The notes beneath the pieces are model-generated. The model did no database searches. It was not told the origin of the DNA and was given only the letters and a program-made list of their open reading frames with translations. A program made the position numbers and the translations under genes. From contig CAYTWW010000010.1 in assembly GCA_964441565.1 (NCBI GenBank), forward strand, positions 3,637-67,636: DNA of 64,000 bases, in the 5' to 3' direction. Each line of letters starts with the position of its first letter. The first letter of the stretch is position 1. Shown here piece after piece: positions 34,122 to 37,693 of the stretch. Source of the DNA: an uncultured Methanosarcinales archaeon. GTDB taxonomy: Archaea > Nanobdellota > Nanobdellia > Woesearchaeales > GW2011-AR15.

Positions 34122-34434
34122 ATATCTGAAGCTTTATTAAATTTTCTGAGACACAATTGATACAGTCTCAATTCATAATGATACAAATATGAGACGAGAT
34201 TATACCAGAATTTCCAGTGGAAATAGGGGGGTGTCTCAGTTTTCATTTTTGAGACGATACAAATACAATATGAGACTTGTCTCATACTAAAATGAGCCAG
34301 TATTTGGTGCATGTGGAAAACTCGCTCGATCAACTGGCCAATATGGCAAAGTGCTTCAGGCAAAGGCACAAGACCCCCCTTGTGCCTGGAGCCAATCGAA
34401 AAATTATAAAAAGCGGGGAGAGTTGGGAAAAAAG

Positions 34435-34848
34435 ATGGAAAACTGCATATTCTGTAGGATCGCAAAAGGAGATATTCCTGCGCAAAAAGTATACGAAGAC
34501 AATGAGGTCATGGCGATACTCGACATCTCCCCGACTTCCCCCGGACATACTTTAGTGATACCTAAAAGACACTCTGAAAATCTCACTGAGATGGGGGAAA
34601 GAGACATCCAGTCCGTCTTCACGACAGTGAAGAAGATCGCTCCAGCAATACTTGTTGCCATGGAGGCTGATGGCTTCAATGTGGGCATGAACAACTACCC
34701 TGCAGCAGGCCAGACTGTGATGCACTCGCATGTGCACATCATCCCCAGGAAGGCAGGCGATGGCCTTATCATGTGGCCGCATAGCAAGTATCTAGAGGGA
34801 GAGATAGGAAGGATAGCAGAGAAGATCAGAAGATCTATTGAGAGTTAG
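34435..34848 (+). CDS. HIT-family (histidine triad) protein (start at internal Met MENC)
   Basis: MENCIFCRI...HSHVHIIPR histidine-triad motif. Confidence 0.8.
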   Translation: MENCIFCRIAKGDIPAQKVYEDNEVMAILDISPTSPGHTLVIPKRHSENLTEMGERDIQSVFTTVKKIAPAILVAMEADGFNVGMNNYPAAGQTVMHSHVHIIPRKAGDGLIMWPHSKYLEGEIGRIAEKIRRSIES

Positions 34849-35429
34849 GGTAGAATAGCTCCCTACAATTGCTGTCAGAGGAACTCTGAGAAATCAATAA
34901 GTTCAGCCATGTATCACTCAGTTCTCCTGTGACACTTAGGACTTCGTCCTGGTGCCACTCGATTCTCTCGTGGTTTCCGATCTTACATTTGCAACGGTGC
35001 TCAGGCCATTTCGTCCTGGCATCACTCGAAGTATCTCGTGATTCCTATCTTCGGCGTGAGCAATCTCGCTGATCGGAATTAAGGAACGTCTCTTTGTTTT
35101 TCAGGTCTCCCTTATTAGAAACATATTTTCTAGAAAAGAGATTTTCAGTTAAATGACGAAAGCTTTTCTTTACTCCCATCACCGCACAAACCGCTTGATA
35201 GGGGAGCCTCTCGCACTTCTGTTGCTGGCTTCACAGGAAGGCACTTAGGACTAGCTCCTGGTGCCACTCGCCTCGGGTCTTCTGGGAGAGCCTCGGGCGC
35301 TTTAAAAAATGACTTCAACTCGTACAGGAAATTAAATCAGACCCTGGTGCTTGGATTTACCTGTCTGTAGAACTCAGTGGCATGAATCAGAATAGAATTA
35401 ATGTAGAAAATCACGAAAAGGAAACAGAA

Positions 35430-35495
35430 TTACTTCTGGGCCTTCCTTCTTCTCTTCTCGCGCCTCATCCTCTTACGCTGCCACTTCCAGCGCAT
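35430..35495 (-). CDS. rpl41e: ribosomal protein L41e micro-ORF (21 aa), not in the ORF track
   Basis: Minus-strand ATG...TAA translates to MRWKWQRKRMRREKRRRKAQK. This aligns residue for residue with eukaryotic/archaeal L41e ([25 protein letters not shown]). Confidence 0.55.
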   Translation of the reverse strand: MRWKWQRKRMRREKRRRKAQK

Positions 35496-35592
35496 CTGGC
35501 GCTTCTTCTTCCATCTTCTTGAGCTTCTTTTCAATTTCGTACCTCTTCGGAGACCTTAGGCCTCTTACTTGACCTCCCATTTAAGGACTGAT

Positions 35593-35670
35593 ATGGCTCG
35601 GCCGGGATTACCAAGGAACTATCAGTTCCTGGGTTTCACGAACGCGAGTGAGTGAACGTTCGGATTCCGG
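35593..35670 (-). repeat. tRNA-3'-end-like fragment ending in a 17-nt exact copy of the tRNA-Glu 3' terminus
   Basis: The string atggctcggccgggatt occurs at 35592-35608 and at 35681-35697. The fragment has a T-arm-like hairpin but no matching 5' acceptor strand. Confidence 0.4.
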
Positions 35671-35681
35671 CGAAGTCAAAA

Positions 35682-35787
35682 TGGCTCGGCCGGGATTCGA
35701 ACCCGGGTCTCAGCCTCGAAAGGGCTGAATGATTGATTGTCCACAACACCTCTTTCGAGGAGCTGCTCCGGACTACACCACCGAGCC
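35682..35787 (-). tRNA. tRNA-Glu (anticodon UUC) with a ~30-nt non-canonical intron in the D-loop region
   Basis: Acceptor GGCUCGG/CCGAGCC plus discriminator A. T-arm CCGGG-UUCGAAU-CCCGG. Anticodon arm CAGCC-CUUUCGA-GGCUG. 4-nt variable loop. An extra AGCAGCUCCUCGAAAGAGGUGUUGUGGA(CAAU) is inserted after GUAGUCCGG relative to archaeal tRNA-Glu. No encoded CCA. An oligo-T follows. Confidence 0.6.
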
Positions 35788-35811
35788 AGTCACTTCTTGG
35801 AAACTCGTCCT

Positions 35812-35822
35812 CTTTTTAAAGG
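35812..35822 (-). promoter_or_regulatory. TATA-like box (CTTTAAAAAG on the minus strand) about 28 nt upstream of the tRNA-Glu 5' end
   Basis: The minus strand reads ggaacCTTTAAAAAGaggacgagtttccaagaagtgact|GGCUCGG. Confidence 0.4.
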
Positions 35823-35835
35823 TTCCTACAAAAAA

Positions 35836-36395
35836 TTAGCGTCTGAATGCCTGGGTCAGGAGATCGGATCTCGTCACGACACCCATTGATGATCCCTTGC
35901 CGCGGACAATGATGATCGGATACTGCCTAAGAAGAGCTGCGATAGTCTCAGTATCAGTCTCCGGAGGAATGATAGGAGGAGCTCCTTCCATGACTTCTGA
36001 TACTACCGCATCTTTATCAAGACCCGACATAAGAGATTCCAGGAGGATGCTCTCACTGACATAGCCGAGCACCTTCCCACCTTCAGCAACAGGAAGCTGT
36101 GAGATCCCATGCTTGCGCATCACTTCGATAGCATGTTTTATATCGCTACCTGGACTTATGGTTATCATGTTCTGGTTCATGATATCCCTAGCTTTTATGC
36201 CAGATTTCTGCTCAAGCTGCCTCAATGTAGAGAAAAGTTTCATGGCATTGGTATAGGAAGGATCAAGCTTCCCAGATTCGACCTTAGCGATGAGAGACTG
36301 GGAGACACCGCTCCTCGCCGCCAGGTCAGATTGCGTAAGTCCAAGCTTCTTTCGAAGCAGCTTTATCATCAAGAGGTCATCCATCAAACCAACCA
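35836..36395 (-). CDS. HTH (XRE) + CBS-pair domain regulator (start moved to internal Met MVGLMDD)
   Basis: [29 protein letters not shown] followed by two CBS motifs. The sequence AAAACATATATATT lies 10-20 nt upstream of the chosen ATG. This suggests a TATA box and a leaderless mRNA. Confidence 0.7.
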
Positions 36396-36505
36396 TAGAG
36401 ACTGAATATATATGTTTTACCCTAATTCGGATAAGAATATTTCTATCAACAAGCTTTTTATTGGATCCGCAAGATGGACATCTAAAAACAAAGGAGGCGG
36501 TCAAT
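36396..36505. promoter_or_regulatory. divergent promoter region between the HTH-CBS regulator and metK (TATA on one side, SD AAAGGAGG + TTG start on the other)
   Basis: Seen directly: atatatat adjacent to the regulator ATG. aaaggaggcggtcaaTTG precedes the MetK reading frame. Confidence 0.45.
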
Positions 36506-37693
36506 TTGAGCGTATTTAGGAAAGGAAAAGTGTTTTTCACATCTGAGAGCGTCGGCCCAGGACATCCAGACAAGGTCTGCGACCAGGTCAGCGATGCGAT
36601 ACTTGATGCAATCTACAAGGAAGATCCGAGCGCAAGGGTCGCGATCGAATGCCTGACAAAGACAGGTTCACTGATGGTCGCAGGAGAAGTCACGACTTCG
36701 ACCTATGTCGAGATCCAGGATATCGCGAGGAAGACAATCAGGGATATCGGGTATAGCGACCCCTCCTTCGGATTCGACGGCGATACATGCGGAGTATGGG
36801 TCAATATTTCCAAGCAGAGCCCAGATATCGCCCAGGGGGTGAATGAGTTCGAGAAGCATGAGCAGGGAGCAGGAGATCAGGGCATGATGTTCGGATTTGC
36901 CACAAATGAGACAAAGGAACTGATGCCTCTCCCGATAATCATGGCACACAAGCTTGTCCACAAGATAACTGAGCTCAGGGAAGGAAGAGTGCTGAAATAT
37001 CTAAGGCCTGATTCAAAGTCGCAAGTCACTGTCGAATACCATGATGGCAAGCCGAAGAGGATAGACAATGTCGTAGTCGCTGTGCAGCACAATCCAGATG
37101 TAGAGCTTGATGTCCTCAGACAGGATATCATCAAGCAGGTCATAAGACCTATCTGCGGCGATTGGATAGATGATAAGACCCAATTCTATGTGAATGGCAC
37201 AGGAAGGTTCGTCGTCGGAGGACCAGTGGCTGACGCTGGTGTCACAGGAAGGAAGATCATCGTCGACACATATGGTGGCATGGGAAGGCATGGAGGAGGA
37301 GCCTTCTCTGGAAAAGACCCTTCCAAGGTCGACAGGAGCGGTGCATATTTCGGAAGGTATGTCGCCAAGAACATCGTGGCTGCAGGGCTTGCTGATGTGT
37401 GCGAGGTGCAGGTCTCATACTGCATCGGAGTGGCAAAGCCCATGTCTGTGCTTGTCGAGACATTCGGCACAAGCAAGATTCCTGAGGAGCAGATAGCAAA
37501 GCTTGTCGAGAAGAACTTCGATTTCAGGCCAGCTAGGATCATCGAGCACCTGAAGCTGAGGAGACCTATCTACAAGAAGACTGCTGCCTATGGACACTTC
37601 GGACGTGACGATCCGGATTTCACCTGGGAGTATACTGACAAGGCAGCAGAGCTCAGGAAGCAGGCAGGTCTGCCTGTGAAACTACCGAATTAG
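36506..37693 (+). CDS. metK: S-adenosylmethionine synthetase, bacterial/eukaryal MetK type (TTG start)
   Basis: [26 protein letters not shown] is the MetK N-terminal signature. The ORF-track frame begins 72 codons earlier, but an SD plus TTG gives the canonical N-terminus. Confidence 0.9.

Follow-up and report, generated by a model that had tools for sequence, protein, structure and literature searches.

A tRNA-Glu(UUC) gene whose D-loop holds about 30 additional nucleotides raises the question of whether this insert is an intron, by what motif it could be removed, and what is to be made of a segment within it that is exactly complementary to the anticodon region of the same tRNA. The gene lies in the window (the whole stretch of DNA analysed, 64 kb in length), where direct reading of the minus strand from 35787 to 35682 gives a 106-nt pre-tRNA-Glu(UUC) with contiguous and collinear exons. 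Its layout, with the insert in parentheses, is GGCUCGG UG GUGU AGUCCGG (AGCAGCUCCUCGAAAGAGGUGUUGUGGACAA) UCAA UCAU U CAGCC CUUUCGA GGCUG AGAC CCGGG UUCGAAU CCCGG CCGAGCC A.

All elements of a tRNA-Glu(UUC) cloverleaf are present in this sequence: a 7-bp acceptor stem of perfect pairs (GGCUCGG/CCGAGCC, followed by discriminator A), a perfect 5-bp anticodon stem carrying a 7-nt loop (CAGCC-CUUUCGA-GGCUG) in which UUC follows U33, and a perfect 5-bp T stem, also with a 7-nt loop (CCGGG-UUCGAAU-CCCGG). The D-stem is formed by GUGU and UCAU. Both the D-arm (GUGU/AGUCCGG.CAA/UCAU) and the 4-nt variable loop (AGAC) agree with other archaeal tRNA-Glu genes that were retrieved. The gene does not encode CCA. 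The minimum free energy (MFE) of the 106-mer is -50.5 kcal/mol (z = -4.3), and none of 200 shuffled sequences was as stable. A TATA-like box and a T-run, which may serve as promoter and terminator, flank the gene (Table 1).

The preliminary description of this locus had proposed ARAGORN as a check, and the outcome is mixed. When RNA positions 21-51 are deleted in silico, the resulting 75-mer is identified as tRNA-Glu(ttc) with a normal cloverleaf and the D-loop AGUCCGGUCAA. The unspliced sequence, in contrast, is not recognized as such: ARAGORN reports zero tRNAs in the whole window, and with its intron option it models the 106-mer as a tRNA-Ala(agc) carrying a 24-nt intron of the 37/38 type. 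The Rfam tRNA model (RF00005) matches only 35750-35682, with 30.2 bits versus a gathering score of 29. This partial match covers the 3' two thirds of the gene and takes intron sequence as a false acceptor strand. The model has no means of passing over the D-loop insert, and the 5' half is misaligned as a result. In tRNAscan-SE 2.0, the search for non-canonical introns is a default in archaeal mode, and its bulge-helix-bulge (BHB) models were trained on introns from Crenarchaeota/Euryarchaeota and Thaumarchaeota (PMC8450103). For annotation, a gene that is missed by default tools means that a MAG of this lineage would seem to lack tRNA-Glu(UUC).

The forced tRNA-Ala(agc) model could be taken to mean that the gene carries a canonical intron at 37/38, and a second copy of its 3' end, truncated to 17 nt and located 88 nt downstream, could be taken as part of a split or permuted tRNA. 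We give these readings next to no chance of being correct. The CUUUCGA loop is an uninterrupted 7 nt on a perfect 5-bp stem, and the tRNA-Ala model was dropped because it leaves out this perfect Glu anticodon arm. Split or permuted arrangements were rejected on several grounds. The two exons are contiguous and collinear on one strand, and the 64-kb window contains the 5' exon only once, without another tRNA-Glu 5' half. The downstream copy has neither a T arm nor a tRNA body, and a permissive Rfam search (E <=10) of 35300-36000 yields no tRNA-like match to it. An integrated element marked by the 17-nt repeat is likewise not supported, as the copies are just 88 nt apart, the window holds no further copy of this repeat, and no integrase domain is found in the annotated neighbour genes. 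Phage records searched by blastn with the locus as query gave no match.

Table 1. Features of the tRNA-Glu(UUC) locus in window coordinates; all lie on the minus strand, and a slash in the splice-site rows marks a predicted cut.
Feature	RNA positions	Window positions	Strand	Description and basis
Complete pre-tRNA-Glu(UUC) gene		35682-35787	-	106 nt; direct reading, fold, partial Rfam match, ARAGORN on spliced form
5' exon	1-20	35768-35787	-	Acceptor 5' strand, U8 G9, D-stem GUGU, D-loop AGUCCGG up to conserved G18 G19; BHB rule
Intron	21-51	35737-35767	-	31 nt, AGCAGCUCCUCGAAAGAGGUGUUGUGGACAA; Sprinzl 19/20 = linear 20/21
3' exon	52-106	35682-35736	-	UCAA, D-stem UCAU, anticodon arm, variable loop AGAC, T arm, acceptor 3' strand, discriminator A
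Anticodon UUC	68-70	35718-35720	-	Inside the uninterrupted 7-nt loop CUUUCGA
Central helix H, exon strand GUCC	15-18	35770-35773	-	Pairs with 35739-35742; in MFE and centroid structures; pair probability 0.987-0.995
Central helix H, intron strand GGAC	46-49	35739-35742	-	Fold, pair probability, homologues
5' splice-site bulge GG/A	19-21	35767-35769	-	Predicted cut after G20 (= Sprinzl G19); 3-nt bulge between H and h' in MFE structure
Intron hairpin h'	22-45	35743-35766	-	GCAGC/GUUGU, U·U mismatch, CCUC-GAAA-GAGG; MFE structure
3' splice-site triplet AA/U	50-52	35736-35738	-	Predicted cut before U52 (= Sprinzl U20); no outer exon helix after it
Intron segment CCUCGAAAG	28-36	35752-35760	-	Exact reverse complement of CUUUCGAGG (RNA 66-74, window 35714-35722)
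TATA-like box TTTAAAAA		35813-35820	-	Candidate archaeal promoter; centre ~29 nt upstream of tRNA position 1; role suggested by general archaeal promoter layout
T-run UUUU		35678-35681	-	Candidate archaeal terminator, directly after the discriminator base; role putative

Splice sites were assigned by the rule that cuts fall between bulge nucleotides 2 and 3, with the two sites arranged symmetrically across a 4-bp helix. This rule sets both cuts, after RNA 20 and after RNA 51 (20/21 and 51/52), and thereby delimits an intron of 31 nt at window positions 35767-35737. The predicted spliced junction reads ...AGUCCGG/UCAAUCAU..., in which ...GUAGUCCGG is joined to UCAAUCAUUCAGCC... The intron hairpin h' pairs positions 22-26 with 41-45 and, beyond a U·U mismatch, 28-31 with 36-39 around a GAAA loop, both in the MFE and in the centroid structure.

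Measured against a strict hBHBh' motif, the locus has the 4-bp GUCC/GGAC helix, the 5' bulge GGA and h' (5 + 4 bp), and its 3' AAU lies at the right offset, unclosed. The outer helices are not both present: h is missing, its length being 0 with an A14·C53 mismatch at the first position, and the same is true of all same-position homologues listed. In the MFE structure, the 3' splice site is placed inside an alternative short helix between U8-U11 and A51-A54. A relaxed HBh' motif has a 4-bp central helix, one 3-nt bulge with a second helix, and the other site in a loop, and all of these are found here, along with an intron position outside 37/38 and an excision that restores the standard length of 75 nt. 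Because the exon-side outer helix is absent, we classify the motif as relaxed HBh' rather than strict hBHBh'.

Much of the preliminary description is borne out by these results. Its identification of a 106-nt tRNA-Glu(UUC) gene with perfect acceptor, T and anticodon arms agrees with direct reading and with the ARAGORN result for the 75-mer. The non-canonical D-loop position that it assigned to the intron is upheld by the 19/20 site, by the 75-nt product and by the same site in the listed homologues, and the BHB-like motif that it expected can indeed be formed, in the relaxed HBh' form, from GUCC/GGAC, the GGA bulge and h'. The intron size of ~30 nt was approximately right, but its delimitation to 28 nt falls 3 nt short at the 3' end and leaves a 78-mer that ARAGORN rejects.

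We estimate a probability of roughly 0.9 that this locus is a functional archaeal tRNA-Glu(UUC) gene, with a D-loop split at 19/20 by a 31-nt, protein-spliced relaxed BHB (HBh') intron. The predicted fold of the precursor has the same acceptor, anticodon and T arms as the mature tRNA, and the D-loop nucleotides G15-C17a (GUCC) are captured by the GGAC at the 3' end of the intron in the 4-bp helix H, stacked on the intron hairpin. On one side of H, a 3-nt bulge comprising G18, G19 and the first intron A abuts the hairpin, and on its other side the triplet AA/U20 lies in an open loop. If processing follows established archaeal tRNA splicing, EndA would cut after the second nucleotide of each triplet, and an RtcB-type ligase would then join the exons and probably circularize the intron. 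Removal of the intron in silico yields a standard 75-nt cloverleaf with the D-loop AGUCCGG-UCAA. The D-loop/T-loop tertiary contact would be established only after splicing because G18 and G19 flank the 5' cut, and CCA, not being encoded by the gene, would also be added afterwards.

Since no member of this class has the exon-side helix, the host EndA would presumably have to accept relaxed motifs. Enzymes able to cut such motifs are (alpha-beta)2 EndAs with the CSL loop, epsilon2 EndAs and a DPANN type that has the L3 loop. Work by Fujishima in 2011 and by Hirata in 2012 reportedly concerns the epsilon2 EndA of ARMAN. Neither an EndA-like ORF nor a ligase gene was found in the 64-kb window; EndA was looked for by tblastn with an approximate M. 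jannaschii EndA query combined with a motif regex, which together constitute a weak test.

A pattern scan of one genome per species (185,579 species), designed to match tRNA-Glu genes with an insert of 11-41 nt between the D-loop GG and the anticodon, yielded at least 120 archaeal loci. Those listed belong to Aenigmarchaeota, Woesearchaeota/Nanoarchaeota, Micrarchaeota, Bathyarchaeia, Nitrososphaeria, Sulfolobales, Thermoproteales, Hadarchaeum and other groups. Splice sites in these homologues were placed by the same offset rule, with a 75-nt product required. Among the matches listed, at least 16 loci carry the intron at offset 0 from G19 (19/20, as in the window), at least 34 at offset +3 (20b/21) and at least 20 at offset +4 (21/22). 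The 19/20 intron is found in L018, L020, L029, L032, L036, L038, L056, L070, L097, L099, L114 and L115, and also in L030, L043, L060 and L120, where the central helix contains one mismatch. Nearly all MAGs that hold these same-position genes (at least 16) bear the label Woesearchaeota, Nanoarchaeota or Nanoarchaeia, and the few odd labels (such as Buchananbacteria, 'bacterium' and Methanosarcinales) are probably binning errors.

All 16 listed same-position loci share the arrangement ...GUAGUCCGG / N-hairpin-GGAY AA / N CAAUCAU or CUAUCAU (L120 has GUAGCCCGG), and the GGN bulge is kept in every one of these homologues. Covariation was evaluated with 15 sequences cut at fixed offsets from both splice sites, where the 3' site is fixed only by the 75-nt product. 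In h', each of the five pairs adjoining the bulge exhibits compensatory changes on both sides, with 98.7% pairing. Helix H is 96.7% paired and has one two-sided change; with the conserved D-loop as its exon strand, it shows next to no covariation. Pairing for the whole structure is 99.1%, compared with 35-50% when the partners are slid by 1-3 columns, and none of 500 shuffles equalled the observed values. Among the homologues, therefore, the motif is conserved in structure and not in sequence.

Judged from these alignments, the intron is a conserved and structurally constrained element of the tRNA-Glu of this clade, and not a random insertion. It is most likely an inherited lineage trait, with a position and geometry common to DPANN genomes of the Woesearchaeota/Nanoarchaeota type and a hairpin sequence that is free to vary. 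The occurrence of same-position introns in genomes labelled Woesearchaeota/Nanoarchaeota (DPANN) accords with an earlier suggestion that non-canonical introns mark archaeal lineages, and an intron at 19/20, directly after G18 G19, whose relaxed motif has no exon-side helix, serves as such a marker. Its recurrence implies that a broad-specificity splicing endonuclease is kept in these small-genome archaea. A full-text literature search gave no account of a 19/20 intron conserved in the tRNA-Glu of Woesearchaeota/Nanoarchaeota, and absence from the texts searched is not proof of novelty.

Non-canonical BHB introns are well documented, and their listed sites include 20/21 and 22/23 in the D-arm (PMC4090602). 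The intron class is thus already known, and the 19/20 tRNA-Glu gene adds one more case. The closest characterized analogue is the pre-tRNA-Glu(UUC) of Methanopyrus kandleri, which, according to Kaneta et al. (2018, PMC5829648), carries a D-loop intron at 20b/21 of the relaxed HBh' type that was removed in vitro by a crenarchaeal EndA. The two introns share the isoacceptor, the D-loop location, protein splicing (predicted from sequence for the window) and the HBh' architecture, in which a central helix is combined with a single proper bulge and an intron helix but no exon-side helix. They differ in that the window intron lies three to four nucleotides further upstream, right after G18 G19, and the window gene lacks a second, canonical intron and belongs to a DPANN host rather than a methanogen.

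Non-canonical BHB introns have also been described from Crenarchaeota/Thermoproteales and from the pre-tRNA-Thr(UGU) of Aeropyrum pernix (Sugahara 2008, Hirata 2011; PMC3241643, PMC4090602). Like these crenarchaeal introns, the one in the window is short, lies outside 37/38, and is defined by a transplantable BHB or relaxed BHB motif; it would likewise require an EndA of broad specificity. Unlike them, it comes from a DPANN lineage, is the single intron of its gene, and has a stably inherited position, in contrast with a burst of multiple transposed introns. Kaneta et al. (2018, PMC5829648) also report that tRNA genes are more often disrupted in DPANN lineages whose EndAs have an extra (L3) loop, and the finding of an intron with a relaxed motif in a DPANN genome fits this association.

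The 9-nt match between CCUCGAAAG in the intron and CUUUCGAGG in the anticodon arm is part of a more extensive likeness. Read as antisense, the intron core (RNA 23-41) nearly copies the complete 17-nt anticodon arm, with 15 matches out of 17 and one 2-nt gap (CAGCUCCUCGAAAGAGGUG aligned with CAG--CCUCGAAAGGGCUG), and the antisense part of the intron hairpin is CCUCGAAAGAGG. Complementarity to the Glu anticodon loop CUUUCG is built into any hairpin with a cGAAAg tetraloop, and some of the match is cheaply obtained in this manner. When the intron interior was shuffled, a 9-mer complementary to the arm arose with P ~6e-4, and the score of the full-arm alignment had P ~2e-4.

The preliminary description had proposed that pairing between these two segments presents the cleavage sites to the endonuclease. 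The exactness of the match and its low chance probability are in keeping with this proposal, as is the fact that the BHB of canonical 37/38 introns is built by pairing of intron nucleotides with the anticodon loop. The window intron resembles such introns in holding a stretch complementary to the anticodon loop, but this stretch is away from the splice sites and outside the BHB, and the intron itself lies 40 nt upstream of the anticodon loop. The intron-anticodon helix sits 7 and 15 nt from the two splice sites and adjoins neither. Its predicted probability is ~0.004, compared with ~0.99 for GUCC/GGAC, and forcing it to form yields -46.1 instead of -50.5 kcal/mol, a cost of 4.4 kcal/mol, with the T arm broken. 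Moreover, the longest complement between intron and anticodon arm is 5 nt or less in the 119 listed loci, including the 16 same-position loci, which keep H and h'; a 9-nt complement is found in the window alone. Because the helix is remote from the splice sites, improbable and absent from homologues, the complementarity does not define those sites, and we consider a role in presenting them exceedingly improbable. Thus the exact 9-nt complementarity noted earlier stands, but the use made of it as the frame of the cleavage sites does not. On the loci compared, this complementarity is a peculiarity of the one lineage.

The antisense likeness to the 17-nt arm (P ~2e-4) could also be read as the trace of an inverted duplication of the anticodon arm, or a comparable D-loop insertion, that inactivated the tRNA-Glu gene and left a pseudogene. 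The truncated 3'-end copy downstream suggests local rearrangement, and the gene is missed by standard finders. However, a conserved intron class in at least 16 other genomes has its introns at this very nucleotide, and the insert agrees with that class in the offsets of bulge, helix and hairpin. The stems are all perfect once the insert is removed, the promoter-like box and the T-run are in place, and the window holds no second 5' half of a tRNA-Glu. We therefore regard inactivation as very improbable and retain the reading of a functional, intron-containing gene.

For such a functional gene, the antisense core could be a neutral footprint, produced for example by templated strand-switching from one hairpin to another 20 nt away, which if true would be one route by which the hairpins of BHB introns are replaced. 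It is unlikely that the core is functional in its own right, in the sense that the intron pairs with the anticodon arm of tRNA-Glu, either while still part of the precursor or once excised, probably as a circle. If real, such base-pairing could lock the precursor into a non-decoding form, protect the anticodon loop against nuclease attack, or act by titrating the mature tRNA. The tRNA-Trp intron of Haloferax, which guides 2'-O-methylation in the anticodon arm as a box C/D RNA, is similar in being antisense to the anticodon arm of its own tRNA. A guide of this kind was rejected for the window intron, which has neither a C box (RUGAUGA) nor a D box (CUGA) and, at 31 nt, is far too short for a C/D RNP. 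The likeness to its own anticodon arm is the sole unexplained element of this locus, which otherwise leaves the understanding of tRNA splicing unchanged.

The window is part of the 172-kb JGI metagenome contig Ga0255811_10958028, and the source samples bear the identifiers JGI 3300023207, 3300021561, 3300020812 and 3300020813 and SRR8165485. Its genes include those for TFIIE-alpha, RNase P Rpp14, proteasome alpha, SBDS and the exosome proteins Rrp4, Rrp41 and Rrp42, a set that identifies the host as an archaeon. The SAM synthetase is of the bacterial/eukaryotic MetK type and has 59.7% identity to one from an Aenigmarchaeota MAG. Directly upstream of the tRNA gene is an HTH-CBS protein that has no relative above ~52% identity beyond its own 90%-identity cluster. 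Its named homologues, of which the nearest have ~50% identity, come from Nanoarchaeota, Woesearchaeota and Aenigmatarchaeota. The contigs of the ~50% homologues keep the MetK/HTH-CBS pair, with no adjacent tRNA-Glu. These affinities, which are not a phylogeny, point to a DPANN host from the Woesearchaeota/Nanoarchaeota radiation that has no close relatives among sequenced genomes.

A metagenome scan with the window's own D-arm and anticodon-arm sequence gave no matches, and a second scan (GTAGTCCGG...GGAYAATCAATCAT) gave one contig (L130), which holds a different, multiply interrupted tRNA-Glu that is not a close relative. A diverged close relative of the locus was found neither in these two scans nor on the contigs of the HTH-CBS homologues. 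A gene of the HIT family is located near tRNA-Glu both here and in the Woesearchaeota MAG with locus L056, with 45.8% identity between the two. The locus is identical (100%) in four other metagenome contigs, which were found via members of the HTH-CBS 90% cluster.

Archaea very commonly carry tRNA-Glu genes with an insert in the region of the D-arm; at least 120 such loci (L002-L121) are found on genome contigs. Among the matches listed, the preferred intron positions are 20b/21 (at least 34 loci), 21/22 (at least 20 loci) and 19/20 (at least 16 loci), and each of these positions appears to be largely clade-specific.

Some archaeal intron-containing tRNA-Glu genes reside on contigs labelled as CPR bacteria or Methanosarcinales. 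The intron is located at 19/20 in a Buchananbacteria MAG (L099), a MAG labelled 'bacterium' (L120) and two 'Methanosarcinales' MAGs (L030 and L115), one nucleotide downstream of 19/20 in another 'Methanosarcinales' MAG (L035), and at other D-loop positions in a Parcubacteria MAG (L100) and a further 'Methanosarcinales' MAG (L113). Wrong binning or labelling is the probable cause, above all for the CPR-labelled contigs. HIT-family genes lie no more than ~1 kb from tRNA-Glu in both the window and the Woesearchaeota MAG locus L056, and share 45.8% identity. This weak synteny backs the taxonomic placement.

The tRNA-Glu(UUC) gene of metagenome contig L130 carries a D-loop intron at 19/20, as in the window, together with a long canonical intron at 37/38, and there appears to be a further interruption in its T-loop, following GGGUUCAAA. 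The D-loop and 37/38 introns both contain the 17-nt stretch CAATGGTCTTGTCCATT, which suggests that an intron was duplicated or transposed inside this one gene.

In the window, the 3' end of tRNA-Glu recurs as a 17-nt direct repeat, without an attached tRNA body, 88 nt downstream of the gene. The 97 nucleotides from the tRNA end to 8 nt past the repeat (35681-35585) fold into a three-way junction with a predicted energy of -31.4 kcal/mol (z -3.2), and the repeat region yields no Rfam match. Comparable 3'-end duplicates occur, among the matches listed, at 7 of 120 other tRNA-Glu loci. The repeat may be what an ancient integration or rearrangement event left behind; no integrase domain is found among the annotated neighbour genes. 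The small ORF that follows is annotated as a gene in public contigs L001, L127 and L128, where its Pfam record holds no match.

Features in the window and in two comparison loci
Feature	Locus	Coordinates	Strand	Remark
17-nt direct repeat of tRNA-Glu 3' end	window	35593-35609	minus	AAUCCCGGCCGAGCCAU; repeats 35681-35697
35-codon ORF	window	35485-35592	minus	MGGQVRGLRSPKRYEIEKKLKKMEEEAPDALEVAA; starts directly after repeated tRNA 3' end
HTH_3 + CBS pair transcription regulator gene	window	35836-36369	minus	
MetK gene	window	about 36500-37693	plus	bacterial-type S-adenosylmethionine synthetase
HIT-family hydrolase gene	window	34351-34848	plus	
HIT-family hydrolase gene	L056	4965-5411		Woesearchaeota MAG
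tRNA-Glu(UUC) gene	L130	1749-1945		JGI contig Ga0209777_10029016

The MetK gene of the window adjoins the HTH-CBS regulator gene, and the two are transcribed in opposite directions. Their counterparts are likewise adjacent in contigs L122 and L123, and are separated by ~3 kb or less in L124. Given that CBS domains bind adenosyl ligands, the HTH-CBS protein appears to be a regulator of metK that senses SAM.
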